Source: an uncultured Chloroflexia bacterium (GTDB lineage: Bacteria > Chloroflexota > Dehalococcoidia > DSTF01 > WHTK01). From it: a stretch of DNA of 64,000 bases. The translations under genes and the position numbers were made by a program. The notes beneath the pieces were generated by a model. It did not search any database, was not told the origin of the DNA, and saw nothing but the letters and a program-made list of their open reading frames with translations. Each line of letters begins with the position of its first letter. Positions within the stretch are counted from its first letter, which is position 1. Below, in pieces: positions 6,008-38,588 of the stretch. The stretch spans positions 1,025,942 through 1,089,941 of the forward strand of contig CAVQCN010000001.1 of the NCBI GenBank assembly GCA_963711035.1. Reading direction: 5' to 3'.

Positions 6008-6076
6008 AGCAAGAGCCAGTATACCCAGCGTTTGCGGAGTGGCAGTAGCGCCTCAGCCTTCGGTTCGCGGAGGTGG

Positions 6077-6424
6077 TCAGGCGCGAGCAAGCACGAGGCC
6101 GATCCCCGCCAGGATGAGCGAGAGGCTCGACTGAGGAACAGTGCCAACACGCTCGGTCAACAAAGAACGGTCGAGCGTGACAATCTGCGAGACGTTGGCC
6201 ACGGAGTCGCGGGGCAGATTGGTAACCTCGGCACTGAGCATGACATTGCCAGGAGCGTTCGCCCAGCCCAGATTGCTGGTTAGAGCAACACAGACGACGG
6301 TTCGGATAGCACTTCGATTGAAAGCATCCCCTTGGACCACGACTACTGGTCTACGGAAGCCTGGTCCCGAACCAGACGGTTCCGGCAGGTCGGCCCAGCA
6401 GATGTCGCCTTGTTCGATCACCAC
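6077..6424 (-). CDS. PemK/MazF-family type II toxin (mRNA interferase)
   Basis: 115 aa MVIEQGDICWADLPEPSGSGPGFRRPVVVVQGDAFNRSAIRTVVCVALTSNL...; classic MazF/PemK N-terminus; overlaps upstream antitoxin by 7 nt. Confidence 0.8.
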   Translation of the reverse strand: MVIEQGDICWADLPEPSGSGPGFRRPVVVVQGDAFNRSAIRTVVCVALTSNLGWANAPGNVMLSAEVTNLPRDSVANVSQIVTLDRSLLTERVGTVPQSSLSLILAGIGLVLARA

Positions 6425-6660
6425 TCAGTTGCGGCCAGCGTTCGTCGCGCCGTTGCCGAGACGAAGCGGTCATCGTTCTCTGAGTCGCCGATCTCTTCGA
6501 GAGCCCTGTTGAGGGCGGCAGTCACCTCGTCCTGCGAATGGCGGGATACATATTCTCGGAGTGCGTCCGCATATACCTCGCTGCGGTGGCGTTTGGAAAG
6601 TCGAACCAGCCGTTCAACCGCGTGGAAGAGATCATCTGGAAGCGAAATCGCGGTTTTCAT
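6418..6660 (-). CDS. Ribbon-helix-helix antitoxin (CopG/MazE-like); start may be upstream at 6732
   Basis: MKTAISLPDDLFHAVERLVRLSKRHRSEVYADALREYVSRH... RHH fold; ATG at 6658-6660; track ORF extends to a TTG at 6732. Confidence 0.65.
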   Translation of the reverse strand: MKTAISLPDDLFHAVERLVRLSKRHRSEVYADALREYVSRHSQDEVTAALNRALEEIGDSENDDRFVSATARRTLAATEW

Positions 6661-6740
6661 ACCCTGAGTATAACTCTGACCATCTCCCATTACGAGAAAG
6701 CGCCTGCTCGTCGCAGCTCCAAGGATACTCAACGGGAGTA

Positions 6741-7591
6741 TTCAATCCGGCGAGGTGACGTGGCCCTTGAGCCCGCCGTCGCCCGTGTTCGGGCGGCTGG
6801 ATCGTGCCGGATGAGGGCGTGGCGATTGGTGGTGGCGCTGATGTCGGCGTCGCTTCGGGCGCCGGCGTGGCCGTTTCGACAGCCTCGGGCGCCGGCGTCG
6901 GAGGTTCGGGCGCTGAGCGCGCGGCGCTGATCGCCTGCAGCAGTCCGTTCAGGGGCACGCTGCCGGTGATCGACCAGATCTCGCCGTACGGCGACGAACC
7001 GGCCGGGATTACCAGCTGCGCTTCGGCGCCGGGCAGGTAGGCGTCCAGCAACGGCTTGCTGATCGCCAGCCAGGGTCCGTCTGGCAGCAGTTCGACGGTC
7101 TCGTTATCGACGATGTGGTAGACGAGGCCGGCCCAGCCGAACTCGTCGCCGGTATCGCTGAACAGGACCAGGTAGCGTTCTCCCACCTGGTAGTGGTTGG
7201 CGGCCAGAGGGCAGGAGCTTATCGTGCCGTGGGCTTCGCTCTCGCGCAGGCGCTGCTCGAGGAGTTGGCGCTGGTAGGCGTCGACCTCGATTTGAGCCGG
7301 CGCGGTGCCGGCGCGTACGAGCACGACGCTCAGCGTTGCGCCGACACCGGTCAGGTCGAAGCCCTCGTACGGATTGATGCCGTTCGGCGGCGTGGCGTCG
7401 ATGGGCGGCTGGCTGTTCTCCGGCCCGCCGACCGCCGTCGCCTCGACGATTGCGATCAGTCCGCGCTGCGGGCGGCTTCGTCGATGGTCGCCGGGCCGGG
7501 GCCGGTACAGGCGAGGGCCGGCGGCGCCGGCGTGTTGACCCTCATCAGGGCAAGCATGGCGAGCAGGAAGGCCACGAAGACCACCAAAAGG
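6741..7591 (-). pseudogene. Secreted Pro/Thr-rich surface protein, interrupted by two 1-nt indels; C-terminus carries PPNTGDGGLK but no TM/basic tail
   Basis: Signal peptide MMKRLLVVFVAFLLAMLALMRVNTPAPPALA|C from ATG 7589-7591 stops after 48 codons. A frame change at a CCC/GGG run near 7470 continues into track ORF 6632..7324. A further shift at a GGG run near 6792 gives ...SSGTIQPPNTGDGGLKGHVTSPD* ending at TGA 6741-6743. Confidence 0.5.
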
Positions 7592-7632
7592 CGCTTCATC
7601 ATATGAAGGAAAACGTCACGTTGACTCCGAAG

Positions 7633-8242
7633 TTAATGCCGGTCAAGGAGCCCGCCGTCGCCCGCGTTCGGAGGAGTGACGGTTGGCCCTTGAACCGGAC
7701 CGCAGTCGGCCAGACATGCACCCGCGTTCGTAGGAAGGGCGGTTGGCACCGCCGGAGGCGTCGCCTCTGTTGTCGGCTTGGCAGTTGGCGCCGGGCCGGC
7801 AGGAGCCGTGGTGGGGCTGGGGCCTGGCGTCGGGCAGGGGCCGGGGTCGCAGGGCGGTACGGGCGCGAAGTTGGTCAGCGTCACGCTGGTGCCGGTCGCG
7901 AGGGTGAACCACTGGTTAAACCACCAACCCTGGCCGCTCTTGAACGTGACGATGGCGCCGTCTTGCGCGCAGGCAGCGGGCTGGCCGGCGAGGCCGAGCT
8001 GCAGAACGACGTCGCTCGTGGCCGTTGAGACGTCCGCGCTGGCGCACTGCTCGCCGTCCGCGAACGCGGTGATGCTGCCGAGGCCTTGGCCCTGCGTTGA
8101 TGCCGTTGTCCGTCATGGTCTGCAGGCTGGCGGCGGGAACGATGACTTCGAACGGAGCTGCCTGCTGGCCCTGTGCCGGCGCCGCCAGCACAAGTGCCAG
8201 CAAGGCCAGTACGCCGGCGAGGCTGCCGATCGCGATGCGCAT
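7633..8242 (-). pseudogene. Second secreted Pro/Thr/Cys-rich protein, frameshifted after the signal peptide; C-terminus ...VTPPNAGDGGLLDRH
   Basis: ATG 8240-8242 (AGGAGG 7 nt upstream) gives signal peptide MRIAIGSLAGVLALLALVLAAPAQG. The frame is lost at a CCC run near 8090; the +1 frame continues ...GQGLGSITAFADGEQCASADV...PCDPGPCPTPGPSPTT... to TAA at 7633 (= track ORF 7633..7884). Confidence 0.5.
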
Positions 8243-8374
8243 AGTGAACCTCCTGGAGTCGTGGTCCCGGGCCGCGAGTCCGCCTCGGCGGAAGAGGCCG
8301 CCACGCGGCCCGGTCGCGCGACAGTGTACGAGAGCCAGCCGGGAATTACCCTGCCCGATCAGATGTTCGGGCGA

Positions 8375-8413
8375 ACCTCACCCCCTACCCCCTCTCCGAT
8401 TTCGGAGAGGGGG
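8375..8413. repeat. Left terminal inverted repeat with 11-12-bp G/C hairpin (8388-8413)
   Basis: ccccctctccg / cggagaggggg perfect stem with ATTT loop, preceded by acctcaccccc. Confidence 0.7.
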
Positions 8414-8423
8414 TTAGCCGTAG

Positions 8424-8795
8424 TCAATTGGACGCTGCCTGGATTACGTTCAGCACGGTTGGTAATGAGGTCATGACTTCGTCATTCTTGAAGCGCAGGA
8501 CGTTGAGTCCGATGTTCTCCAGGTAGGCTTGTCGATTGGAGTCATCCTCAATGCTCGTTTCGTGGATTGGCCCGTCCACTTCAACGACGAGCTTTGCTGC
8601 GTGGCAGTAGAAGTCGACGATGAACGGCCCGATAGCGTGTTGGCGCCTGAAGCGCAGGCCGTTCAGCTTGCCGCCGCGCAATTCCTGCCAGAGCATCTGC
8701 TCTGCAGACGTCGGTTCGCGCCGATGTTGTCGTGCTAACGGCTTCAGCTGCTCCCAGATCTGGGGTGGAGTTTGCCACACACGTTCTTCGTCCAT
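8424..8795 (-). CDS. DUF559 (Vsr-like endonuclease fold) domain protein
   Basis: Internal ATG 8793-8795 of track ORF 8424..9014 gives MDEERVWQTPPQIWEQLKPLARQHRREPTSAEQMLWQELRGGKLNGLRFRRQHAIGPFIVDFYCHAAKLVVEVDGPIHE...GLNVLRFKNDEV. The upstream part of the track ORF is Arg/Ser junk. Confidence 0.8.
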   Translation of the reverse strand: MDEERVWQTPPQIWEQLKPLARQHRREPTSAEQMLWQELRGGKLNGLRFRRQHAIGPFIVDFYCHAAKLVVEVDGPIHETSIEDDSNRQAYLENIGLNVLRFKNDEVMTSLPTVLNVIQAASN

Positions 8796-8823
8796 CAGAT
8801 TCTTGGCCGAAGGCCATCGTCCT

Positions 8824-8860
8824 CCCCTCTCCGATTTCGGAGAGGGGCTGGGGGTGAGGT
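8824..8860. repeat. Right terminal inverted repeat (10-bp hairpin 8824-8847 plus gggggtgaggt)
   Basis: Inverted copy of the left repeat; t8860 is shared with the cinA TGA stop (8860-8862, minus strand). Confidence 0.7.
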
Positions 8861-10092
8861 CATCGCAGCGATTGCAGCAGCATGCGCAGCGCCTGGGTGA
8901 CGGCGCGGCGCTTGATCGCCTCTCGCGACTGGGGGAAGTGGAAGCCGATGTCCTGTGACGGCACGGTGTCGCCGCCATCGAGGCTGATGTAGACCTGGCC
9001 GACCGGCGCGCCATCCTGCGGGTCGGGGCCGGCCACGCCCGTGATGCCGATGCCGATGTCGGCCTGCAGGTGCTCGCGGACGGCGGCGGCCATCGCCGAG
9101 GCCGTCTGGGCGCTGATCACGCCGTGCTCTTCGATGATCGCCGGGTCGACGCCCATCATCTCTTTGATATCGGTGGCGTAGGAGACGATGCCGCCGCGAA
9201 AGTAGGCGCTGCTGCCCGGCACGTTGGTGATCGTGTCGGCGAGCAGCCCGCCGCTGCACGACTCCATGACGGCCAGCGTCAGGCCGCGCTCTTTCAGCGA
9301 CCGGCCGGCTGAGCTCTCCAGCGTGTCGTCGTCCGCGCCCCAGACAGAGGGCCCGAGGATGCGGCGCGCCTCCTCTTCGATCGGAGTGAGCAGGGCCAGC
9401 GCCTCTTCTGGCGTCGCGGCCTTGGCGCCGATGCGCACGTGGATGCCGTCGCCGCGTGCGTAAACGCCTATCGAGGGGTTCACGGACTTGAGCAGCGGGC
9501 TCAGCATCTCGTCCACGCTGCCTTCACCGATGCCGACCGTCTTCAGGGTGCGCTTCACGAGCACCGCGCCGTCGGAGCGGCGCAGCAGTTCCGGCGCGAC
9601 CTCCTCGTCCCACATGCGCATCATTTCTGGCGGCACGCCTGGCATGGCGACGATGATCTTGCCGTCGCGTTCCACCCACCAGCCGGGAGCGGTGCCGCGT
9701 GGGTTGGGGATGTCTCGCGCCGATGGGATGAGCCAGGCCTGCTTCAGGTTGCGCTCCGGCATCACGCCGCCGGCACGGCGGGCGAACCAGGCGCGCAGCT
9801 CTTCTTCGAGGCGTGGGTCTATGGCGGGCTCTTCGTTGAGGACGGCGGCGATTGCCTCGCGCGTGAGGTCGTCCTCCGTGGGGCCGAGGCCGCCGGTGAT
9901 GATGACGAGGTCGCTCTCATCGCGGGCGTGCGACAGGACGTCGACAATGCGGCCGAGGTTGTCGCCCACGGTGTGCTTGAAGTAGACGTCGATGCCGAGC
10001 GCGGGCAGCCGCGAGGCCACATAGGCGCTGTTGGTGTCGATGATCTCACCCAGCAGGATTTCGGTGCCGACGGCCATGATCACAGCTCGCAT
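8860..10092 (-). CDS. cinA: CinA-family competence/damage-inducible protein (MoCF-binding + NMN deamidase PncC domains)
   Basis: 410 aa MRAVIMAVGTEILLGEIIDTNSAYVASRLPALGIDVYFKHTVGDN...VIITGGLGPTEDDLT...; full-length two-domain CinA. Confidence 0.9.
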   Translation of the reverse strand: MRAVIMAVGTEILLGEIIDTNSAYVASRLPALGIDVYFKHTVGDNLGRIVDVLSHARDESDLVIITGGLGPTEDDLTREAIAAVLNEEPAIDPRLEEELRAWFARRAGGVMPERNLKQAWLIPSARDIPNPRGTAPGWWVERDGKIIVAMPGVPPEMMRMWDEEVAPELLRRSDGAVLVKRTLKTVGIGEGSVDEMLSPLLKSVNPSIGVYARGDGIHVRIGAKAATPEEALALLTPIEEEARRILGPSVWGADDDTLESSAGRSLKERGLTLAVMESCSGGLLADTITNVPGSSAYFRGGIVSYATDIKEMMGVDPAIIEEHGVISAQTASAMAAAVREHLQADIGIGITGVAGPDPQDGAPVGQVYISLDGGDTVPSQDIGFHFPQSREAIKRRAVTQALRMLLQSLR

Positions 10093-37188: not shown

Positions 37189-38419
37189 TCAGGCCAGCTC
37201 GGCCGGCTCTGCTTTCTCCAGCTCGAACGCCTTGTGCAGGGCGCGCACCGCGTCGGCGACCTTGTCCTCGCTGATGATGCAGGTGATGCGGATCTCGCTG
37301 GTCGAGATCATCTCGATGTTGATGCCCGCGTCGTAGAGCGTGCGGAACATGCGCGAGGCAAAGCCGGGGGCGCTCTGAATGCCGGTACCGACGATGCTCA
37401 CCTTGCCGATGCGATCGTCGGACGCCACGCCGGCGGCGTTGAGCTGCCCTGCCACGCGTTCGACGATGGGCATGGCGCGCTCGAGGTCGCCCTTGGAGAC
37501 GGTGAACGTGAGGTCGGCCAGCCCTTCGGCGGAAGCGTTCTGGACGATCACGTCGACCGAGAGGTGCGCTTCGGCCATCGGCTCGAACACGGACGCGGCG
37601 ATGCCGGGCCGGTCGGGCACACCGCGCAGAGTGATCTTCGCGACGTCCATGTCGTGGGCGATGCCGCGCACGCGGTTGAACTGCTCCATAGCGATGCCTC
37701 CGTGGATCAGGGTGCCGGGCGCCTCCGTGAAGCTCGAGGCGACGTAAATCGGGACGTTGTACACGGCCGCGATCTCGACCGACCGCGACTGCATAATCTT
37801 CGAGCCCTTGCTGGCCAGCTCGAGCATCTCCTCGTAGGTAATCTCGGGCAGCTTGCGGGCGTCCGGCTCCACGCGGGGGTCGGCGGTGTACACGCCGTCC
37901 ACGTCGGTAAAGCGCTCGCAGCGGGCGCCGAGCACCGCGGCCATGGCGACGGCGGTCAGGTCGGAAGCGCCGCGGCCCAGGGTGGTGACGTCGAGGTCTT
38001 CGGTGATGCCCTGGAAGCCCGCGATGATGACGACGCGCCCGGCGGCGAGCTCGCGGCTCACGCGGTCGGGCTCGATGCCGAGGATGCGGGCGCGGCTGTG
38101 CACGGAGTCGGTGCGCAGGCCGGCCTGGGCGCCGGTCAGGCTAGATGGCGTCGACGCCCATGTTGTGCAACGCCATCGCCATCAGCGTGCTGGAGACGAT
38201 CTCGCCCGTAGAGAGGAGGACGTCCATCTCGCGGTCGGTGGGGTTCTGGTTGATCTGGTGCGCCAGCTCGATCAGCTCGTCGGTCGTGTCGCCCATGGCG
38301 GAGACGACGGCGACGACGTCGTTGCCCTCGGCCTTGCGGCGGGCGATGCGCTGCGCGACGGCGCGGATGCGGTCGGCGTTGGCGACGGAGGAGCCGCCGT
38401 ATTTCTGGACGATGAGCAT
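37189..38419 (-). CDS. lysC: Aspartate kinase, interrupted: N-terminal 92 codons (38141..38419) and C-terminal 304 codons (37189..38103) in different frames
   Basis: [52 protein letters not shown]...HNMGVDAI* then, in another frame, [28 protein letters not shown]...VIIAGFQG...two ACT domains. Confidence 0.85.
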
Positions 38420-38502: not shown

Positions 38503-38523
38503 CCCTCTCCCTCAGGGAGAGGG
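38503..38523. repeat. Solo copy of the cassette-type G/C hairpin (ccctctccc-tca-gggagaggg followed by cgagggtgagc)
   Basis: Same arm sequence as the hairpins flanking the DUF559 cassette, with a different loop and similar trailing gggtgag. Confidence 0.4.
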
Positions 38524-38588
38524 CGAGGGTGAGCGGTCGTAACGCTACGTTTCTGTGTCGGGCGCCGGATGCAGGTCGGAGCGCGTGT

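Follow-up and report, generated by a model that had tools for sequence, protein, structure and literature searches.

A YcjD-like DUF559 nuclease gene between inverted triplex motifs in a Chloroflexota genome, and the association of its clade with such repeats across bacteria

Gene–repeat systems of the RAYT/REPIN type (Nunvar 2010; Bertels & Rainey 2011) reportedly pair a gene that is present once per genome and mostly passed on vertically with a short, structured, dispersed repeat, inverted copies of which lie on either side of the gene. The BoxC/PIT/TMECO repeats of Escherichia coli have been known since the 1990s (earlier work of Bachellier, Hoyne & Maher, as cited in PMC4666352). In vitro triplex formation has been published for the E. 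coli motif (Holder et al. 2015, PMC4666352), whose definition there comprises a 9-nt C-stem, a loop of 3–6 nt, a 9-nt G-stem, a loop of 3 nt and a further 9-nt G-stem. TMECOs are always intergenic and sometimes occur in inverted pairs; motifs of the class are abundant in enterobacteria and cyanobacteria, and they are associated with ∼3 kb of variable sequence and are hotspots of insertions and deletions (indels) and of replaced regions (PMC4666352). In a 64-kb stretch of Chloroflexota DNA (the window, to which all positions refer unless another locus is named), a gene encoding a DUF559 nuclease related to E. coli YcjD lies directly after cinA, between two inverted copies of a repeat. We conclude that these repeats are potential intrastrand triplex motifs (TMs) of the BoxC/PIT/TMECO type, not element-specific transposon ends, and that at the level of sequence this DUF559 clade is strongly and specifically associated with TMs, in at least five phyla.

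The cassette and its immediate surroundings are composed as follows, third strand denoting the G-rich arm of a TM.

8375–8385, plus strand: arm of the left end, ACCTCACCCCC, followed by a TA spacer
8388–8413, plus strand: hairpin of the left end, CCCCCTCTCCG-ATTT-CGGAGAGGGGG
8375–8413, minus strand: the downstream TM, which reads CCCCCTCTCCG-AAAT-CGGAGAGGGGG, TA, GGGGGTGAGGT
8424–8795, minus strand: YcjD-like DUF559 endonuclease gene, 123 aa, with a predicted Vsr-like PD-(D/E)XK fold
8805–8815, minus strand: small hairpin (GGCC-TTC-GGCC) that separates the DUF559 start codon from the upstream TM, not present in the related locus L001
8824–8847, plus strand: hairpin of the right end, CCCCTCTCCG-ATTT-CGGAGAGGGG, followed by a CT spacer
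8850–8860, plus strand: arm of the right end, GGGGGTGAGGT
8824–8860, plus strand: the cinA-side (upstream) TM, with C-stem CCCCTCTCC, loop G-ATTT-C, G-stem GGAGAGGGG, loop CTG and third strand GGGGTGAGG, then T
8860–10092, minus strand: cinA (nicotinamide-nucleotide amidase family; CinA, MoCF and KH domains), the conserved left neighbour of the cassette

Each cassette end thus consists of an 11-nt arm and a G/C hairpin of 10/11 bp, and the DUF559 gene is the sole gene between them. The two TMs are inverted relative to each other, so that each G-rich third strand is placed at an outer 3′ end; written as a single oligonucleotide, the window variant reads CCCCTCTCCGATTTCGGAGAGGGGCTGGGGGTGAGG. The 24-nt hairpin core occurs at only two sites in the window, both of them cassette ends, with no match in 100 shuffles, and the exact 11-nt arm is likewise confined to the two ends. 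Both hairpins are predicted to be stable as single-stranded DNA, with z-scores of −3.0 to −5.8 (−18.4 kcal/mol and z −5.8 for the hairpin of the downstream TM, 8375–8413). The preliminary description of this locus had called the ends mutual reverse complements. This holds for the arms and the self-complementary stems, which are inverted, but the hairpin core with its loop is an exact direct repeat, the loop being ATTT on the plus strand at both ends, and the 2-nt spacers also depart from symmetry (TA versus CT). A single DUF559 gene between inverted repeats directly after cinA, as described there, is confirmed by the match to the PF04480 profile (E 3.4e-35; 120.6 bits against a cut-off of 20.6 bits). 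Two details are corrected here. The protein has 123 residues from its ATG, the earlier figure of 124 including the preceding CTG codon, and position 8860, given as the T of the cinA TGA, carries T on the plus strand and is hence the third base, A, of that stop codon; it is also the last base of the right TM arm. A 78-aa open reading frame (ORF; minus strand, 8581–8817) overlaps the DUF559 gene in another frame, with an ATG after the GGAGG of the hairpin 3′ strand, and is probably spurious.

The assignment of the repeats to the triplex class follows from the arms. Each arm is the mirror image of the neighbouring stem strand, with A or T tolerated opposite A–T pairs, which is the rule of the antiparallel purine-motif triplex (G.GC, A.AT and T.AT). 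All nine of nine purine-motif triads are present at both window ends; the first loop is 4–6 nt long, and the second is 3 nt at the cinA-side end (8824–8860) and 2–4 nt, depending on the register, at the left end. Among 261 flanks of varied-stem hairpins near DUF559 genes, 69 have nine of nine triads, compared with expected values of 10.6 for permuted stems and 23 for reversed stems. In a set of 248 distinct TMs, the second loop is 3 nt long in 182, the third-strand base opposite G–C pairs is G in 1650 of 1680 cases, and opposite A–T pairs A is found 288 times and T 238 times. The covariation of stem and arm across many loci, taken as a sequence pattern, fits a DNA triplex. A G-quadruplex formed by the G-rich arm was considered and set aside, as it would explain neither why arm and stem covary position by position nor why the loop keeps a length of 3 nt. 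A pyrimidine-motif triplex on the C-rich strand gives a poorer fit, with 8/9 triads here and T opposite A–T on the G-rich strand in 45% of cases. No known RNA family was detected in 7500–9500 (Rfam, E up to 10), chance matches to mir-4433 and DUF1874 RNA being far below the gathering scores.

A scan of one genome per species with the pattern CCCCTCTCCG-N2-8-CGGAGAGGGG yielded at least 120 hairpin loci, from Planctomycetota, Chloroflexota, Cyanobacteria, Gemmatimonadota, Armatimonadota, Myxococcota, Bacteroidota and others. In most of the loci listed, (A)ACCTCACCCC adjoins the hairpin on one side, GGGGTGAGGT(T) adjoins it on the other, or both are present; this is the module found in the window, and it is conserved across phyla. 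Since this arm-plus-hairpin module is ubiquitous, mostly without DUF559 alongside, the repeats are not private ends of an element. They share with BoxC/PIT/TMECO the stem–loop–stem–loop–third strand geometry and a nearly identical third-strand core (GGGTGAGG), as well as an intergenic location, an arrangement in inverted pairs and indel-rich surroundings. They differ in register and sequence (CCCCTCTCC here, CCCTCNCCC there), in their Chloroflexota host and in forming a pair that faces outward and encloses a gene, whereas neither an associated gene nor a mobility function is described in the earlier publication (PMC4666352). The strict TMECO pattern CCCTCNCCC-N3-6-GGGNGAGGG-N3-GGGNGAGGG is not matched by the window ends; because their stems CCCCTCTCC/GGAGAGGGG lie in a shifted register, they belong to the class as a variant and are not true TMECOs. 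No further copy of the 37-nt type exists elsewhere in the 64-kb window, which does contain one TM of another subtype:

38503–38535, plus strand: solitary TMECO-like TM, CCCTCTCCC-TCA-GGGAGAGGG-CGA-GGGTGAGCG, 8/9 triads, no DUF559 gene beside it

This motif (whole, CCCTCTCCCTCAGGGAGAGGGCGAGGGTGAGCG) is located where a spacer separates aspartokinase from an RDD-like membrane ORF, is one position off the TMECO pattern and is of a subtype other than that of the two flanking DUF559. The three TMs of the window are all intergenic, and 20 block-shuffled windows contained none. The aspartokinase gene is split near 38104–38141 by a +1 frameshift (ORFs 38141–38419 and 37189–38103), reflecting either a pseudogene or an assembly error.

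The association between DUF559 and TMs can be viewed from either partner. From the repeat, a DUF559 gene lies beside the hairpin in five of the 120 genome loci listed, and among these loci DUF559 is the only family that recurs (five loci) when ORFs up to 400 nt from the hairpin are considered; the second-ranking ORF cluster represents one orthologous enolase locus with a plain terminator. From the gene, the analysis covered 80 metagenomic loci, each coding for a relative of the window protein. Within 220 nt of the gene, a perfect polypyrimidine/polypurine hairpin is present on the upstream side at 51 of 71 loci and on the downstream side at 27 of 76, against a background of 0.088 per kb. Of the 59 loci with two assessable flanks, 42 have a full TM no more than 260 nt from DUF559, and 11 have one on each side (background 0.052 per kb); by side, TMs are upstream of the gene in 37/69 and downstream in 26/70. 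The TM finder demands perfect stems of at least 7 bp; it misses the E. coli TMECO because of a mismatch in the stem, as well as the PCC 7002 motifs with G5 stems, and these frequencies are therefore lower bounds. In many database proteins of the clade, the N- or C-terminus is extended by translated TMs, for example PSSLAGRGLGGGV or PLPASGEGQGEG, and TM subtypes travel with the DUF559 gene.

The pairing is also seen in individual organisms that were selected independently. TMECO no. 9 of Holder et al. is located 167 nt downstream of ycjD in E. coli K-12, and the gene for the homologue of PDB 3HRL in Neisseria gonorrhoeae has TMs on both sides, followed by a TM array. An Azospirillum copy of DUF559 has a TM ∼35 nt upstream. 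A plasmid copy in Synechocystis sp. B12 (L217, 1475–1930) displays the order TM–DUF559–TM, facing outward as in the window and interrupting a DUF1156 gene, and the homologue on pAQ6 of PCC 7002 (L218, 2149–3348) has, in the same position, an in-frame peptide of ∼70 aa that resembles translated triplex-type repeats. Further cases are found at Gemmataceae, Gemmatimonadota and Rhodobacter loci. We found no description of a link between DUF559 or ycjD and TMs in the literature on DUF559, ycjD or BoxC-type repeats, or in works citing Holder 2015; the systematic pairing of this TM class with YcjD-like nucleases appears to be new, the repeat class itself being already known. The cross-phylum pairing suggests that the nuclease family may be the missing partner of the TM repeats.

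Some local details of these loci are recorded here. In E. coli K-12 (L211, NC_000913.3 1351030–1351840), three features come after ycjD in turn: a degenerate hairpin, an incomplete second copy of the ycjD 3′ end and TMECO no. 9; the GTG start of K-12 ycjD lies inside a hairpin, CACCTCATTCTGACA...TGTCAGAATGAGGTG, that is common to the eef-carrying strains, and the ycjD-specific segment ends 43 nt past the TMECO. In N. gonorrhoeae (L219, 1690–2400), the region downstream of DUF559 is a tandem array with a period of ∼281 nt and two opposite-strand TMs per unit.

The window protein scores 85.3 bits with the NCBIfam YcjD equivalog model NF007294, below its cut-off of 218 bits, and is thus a homologue of YcjD and not an orthologue. 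The conserved residues D62, E73, D75, H79 and D86 are intact (numbered on the 124-residue translation of 8424–8798, which starts at the CTG codon before the ATG). The only solved homologue found by sequence is 3HRL (E 1e-28). The AlphaFold model (pLDDT 81) likewise has 3HRL as its best Foldseek match (TM-score 0.88), followed by the catalytic domain of I-Bth0305I (PDB 3R3P; E 9e-5, TM-score 0.76), by AbaSI and PvuRts1I through their Vsr-like domains and lastly by Vsr. The Vsr-like fold proposed in the preliminary description is supported by the predicted structure, and the nearest characterized structural relative is a homing endonuclease. DUF559 has been placed in the EDxHD family of homing endonucleases (PMC9403480), to which I-Bth0305I belongs, and the E, D, H and D residues of that enzyme are conserved in the window protein; unlike I-Bth0305I, the window protein has neither an intron or intein host nor a long N-terminal DNA-binding region. 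With YcjD and the gonococcal protein NGO0050 (3HRL), it shares full-length homology and a gene adjoined by TMs, and it differs from them in an extra conserved N-terminal helix (W..P.LW..LKPLAR). Profile searches with the cassette protein matched DUF559/MTES_1575 only, with no recognized transposase (DDE, HUH, serine or tyrosine), and the PADLOC defence-system models gave only a marginal match to DpdF. The gene is under purifying selection (ratio of nonsynonymous to synonymous divergence, dN/dS, 0.14 versus L001). Its dS of 1.2 is 2.7 times that of cinA (0.45), and its GC content at third codon positions is 0.70, compared with 0.87–0.90 in neighbouring genes, in all three relatives, giving it a foreign look.

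Judging by the organisms named for cinA homologues, the window probably comes from a Chloroflexota/Dehalococcoidia-like metagenome-assembled genome. Comparison of the cinA–valS locus among relatives, with cinA identities given relative to the window, reveals several states of the cassette.

L001, cinA 88% identical: TM–DUF559–TM, then valS
L128, cinA 77%: TM–DUF559–TM, from 70 nt after the cinA stop
L212/L213, cinA 78%: hairpin, frameshifted DUF559, TM
L129, cinA 78% (88% to L128): no cassette; downstream synteny differs
L214, cinA 77%: no cassette; cinA, 75 nt, valS

Presence and absence at one conserved site, together with degenerate copies, are thus observed at this locus, which recalls the presence, decay and loss of homing genes. 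Because intact, frameshifted and absent states occur across relatives with diverged cinA, the cassette is old and has the pattern of invasion, decay and loss of a selfish gene, and we infer from this comparison that it is a vertically carried resident and not a recent insertion. The fresh insertion exactly at the stop codon proposed earlier does not hold, since the cassette predates the split of lineages with 77–88% cinA identity and begins 70 nt past the stop in L128. The mobile or homing element proposed with it survives in part: a mobile or selfish past is plausible given these states and the unrelated contexts described below, but the repeats are not private ends. Two observations bear on that proposal in opposite directions, namely that the repeat is ubiquitous and REP-like (repetitive extragenic palindromic), with no DUF559 at 115 of the 120 hairpin loci listed, and that the relatives with DUF559 at the cinA locus do have the repeats. 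No target-site duplication is visible at the window cassette (flanks ...cgatg/A and T/tcgccc, the slash marking the cassette edge) or in L001. The empty-site comparison recovered the cassette-free L214 and L129, but neither provides a clean empty site, L129 being rearranged downstream and L214, at 77% cinA identity, too diverged.

The L128 arms (ACCTCTCCCC/GGGGAGAGGT) are altered on both sides and still complementary. The TMs of the window and L001 share 92–95% identity, compared with 81% over the entire aligned block. On the gene strand, the upstream hairpin is centred on AAAT in the window (8836–8835) and on ATTT in L001 (1835–1838), the palindrome centre being flipped between identical stems. 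One large difference adjoins the cassette:

6059–8374: lineage-specific segment of 2316 bp between the cassette and valS, not in L001 (blastn breakpoints)

The outer edge of the TM arm is the exact starting point of this segment, which contains a PemK/MazF toxin gene (6077–6424), a ribbon–helix–helix/VapB-like antitoxin gene (6418–6732) and several ORFs without a Pfam match. An indel abutting a TM fits the indel-prone surroundings of TMs reported in PMC4666352. A short GGCTGAGGC near 6058 resembles the end of the arm.

Elsewhere, gene and repeats behave in several respects as a unit. Related cassettes are found in unrelated contexts, between thioesterase and FemAB genes (L002), between hypothetical and CHAT genes (L004) and after an M28 peptidase gene (L006), and within one subfamily, with cassettes 77–89% identical, homology is limited to the gene and its TM-bearing leader despite hundreds of flanking bases. 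Gene-less TM pairs in the same outward arrangement enclose only 40–90 nt (L043, L048 and L103), and composite TM units recur within single genomes (e.g. L012/L076 and L011/L069). The TM–gene–TM cassettes and the gene-less TM pairs resemble the autonomous and non-autonomous forms of one element. In Legionella, repeated segments of transposase plus DUF559 are recombination hotspots (PMC12308824). The ycjD–TMECO segment occupies the sapF–fabI spacer in 3343 of 5426 complete E. coli genomes, the eefRABCD operon taking its place in the others, and ycjD is reported from phylogroups A, B1 and C plus ST69 and ST182, with B2 not listed (PMC12817139). Tandem arrangements were also noted: L093 (1430–2430) contains five tandem 209-nt units, each of them arm–hairpin–main hairpin–hairpin–arm and four-way-junction-like, and a metagenome-assembled Bacteroidales genome (L010, 15–260) has three tandem 78-nt units of the same type of motif.

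With moderate confidence, we favour the interpretation that a YcjD-family nuclease and its flanking TMs constitute a selfish or commensal gene–repeat partnership of a RAYT/REPIN-like or homing-like kind. By analogy, RAYT/REPIN appears to be the closest model, and a homing-like variant in which the TMs serve as homology arms would be equally compatible with the data. As in RAYT/REPIN, a single gene has inverted copies of a repeat on its two sides, and the repeat is also scattered over other sites; the enzyme here is a Vsr-like PD-(D/E)XK nuclease in place of a Y1 HUH transposase and the repeat is a hairpin plus a triplex strand, so that the relationship is one of analogy and not of membership. 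In the proposed mechanism, the TM would fold into a G/C hairpin followed by a 3-nt loop, with the G-rich strand then running antiparallel in the hairpin major groove (G.GC, A.AT, T.AT). The nuclease may recognize this DNA when it is folded, in single-stranded or supercoiled form, and nick or cut there, and the break could be repaired by recombination or gene conversion between TM copies. Such repair may maintain or spread the TMs, may move TM–gene–TM as a block in a homing-like manner with the TMs as portable homology arms, and may leave indels beside the TMs. Going further, and quite tentatively, one may propose that YcjD-like DUF559 proteins are the trans-acting partners of BoxC/PIT/TM repeats in general. 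They would then be structure-specific nucleases that drive the spread, maintenance and rearrangement of the repeats in at least five phyla and form a second RAYT/REPIN-like system, mechanistically distinct from the first, with TM–gene–TM cassettes as its autonomous members and solitary TMs and TM pairs as its non-autonomous ones.

A number of points weigh against the partnership. To our knowledge, no biochemical activity on any substrate has been reported for any YcjD-like DUF559 protein. The 115 of 120 hairpin loci listed without DUF559 nearby fit action in trans, but they would also fit independence. The window contains only three TMs, the third of a different subtype, and the orientation of TMs around DUF559 is biased, not fixed. 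At the cinA locus there is neither a target-site duplication nor a recent copy. Homologues are rare on plasmids (41/72,556 records) and in phages (3/50,697), and most of the 'plasmid' matches are chromids or mislabelled chromosomes. In E. coli, the relation between ycjD and TMECO number is only suggestive, because it follows phylogeny and involves very few independent events. Published TMECO counts are 1–2 in strains that we take to be B2 and 13–30 in strains that we take to be A, B1 or C. Strains presumed to be D, E or F have 6–15 and include carriers of both eefRABCD (O157:H7, ST11) and ycjD (ST69). O157:H7 strains, ST11 being listed with eefRABCD and not with ycjD, still have 10–11. Finally, Holder et al. 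found no mobility functions near TMECOs (PMC4666352).

The alternative that survives best is passive co-location, in which TMs are fragile, indel-prone spots where an often-transferred orphan DUF559 gene lands or survives, with no biochemical relationship between the two. The record of TMECO loci as hotspots of indels and replaced regions (PMC4666352), the 2.3-kb indel abutting a window TM, the alternation of the E. coli ycjD segment with the eef operon and the absence of DUF559 beside most TMs are all as this explanation would have it. It does not account for the fact that no other transferred family recurs beside TMs among the 120 loci listed, or for a pairing in at least five phyla in which TM subtypes travel with the gene. 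Nor does it explain why TMs lie tight against the ORF, often read into the annotated N- or C-terminus, or why the cassette has persisted at a single locus where its gene is less conserved than either TM. We consider passive co-location unlikely.

Local regulation, whereby the flanking structures would control or insulate a potentially toxic nuclease, for instance by transcription pausing, mRNA end protection, masking of the ribosome-binding site (RBS) or autoregulation and have no part in mobility, seems to us a doubtful explanation. The 3′ strand of the upstream hairpin (GGAGAGGGGAGG) is RBS-like and stands 10–30 nt before the start codon, and TMs are commoner upstream (37/69) than downstream (26/70) of the gene. 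A promoter/terminator scan of 8000–9200, however, detected neither a terminator-like site, defined as a G/C hairpin followed by a T run, nor a sigma-70-like site, and PIT elements had neither promoter nor terminator activity in earlier tests (summarized in PMC4666352). The covariation follows the purine motif, which according to PMC4666352 is impossible in RNA, and therefore points to a DNA structure. Local regulation also leaves the many solitary TMs and the cassette-limited homology unexplained.

A classical miniature transposon, recently inserted at the cinA stop, with DUF559 as its dedicated transposase and the 37–39-nt repeats as terminal inverted repeats of its own, is very improbable: the inverted terminal symmetry around a single enclosed gene is suggestive, PD-(D/E)XK enzymes can join in transposition, as TnsA does (PMC1189080), and the inverted structured ends and gene-less short derivatives (L043, L048 and L103) recall miniature inverted-repeat transposable elements, insertion sequences with terminal inverted repeats and the hairpin ends of IS200/IS605, but here there is no target-site duplication, no known transposase family and no second cassette copy in the 64-kb window, the ends are common to many solitary copies in other phyla, the cassette is older than the split of lineages with 77–88% cinA identity, and the orientation of TMs around DUF559 varies, direct repeats included.

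The partnership between YcjD-like nucleases and TMs would connect two long-standing problems. BoxC/PIT/TMECO repeats form triplexes in vitro and mark unstable regions, and no function, origin or associated enzyme has been found for them so far; DUF559/YcjD is a very large nuclease family without a known role. That repeat and gene are found together reproducibly, from E. coli to Chloroflexota, turns both problems into one testable hypothesis, namely that YcjD acts on triplex repeats, and E. coli K-12, which has both partners, offers a direct experimental handle. If true, this would represent a new kind of gene–repeat symbiosis and a nuclease that reads non-B DNA, which is potentially useful as a structural probe.

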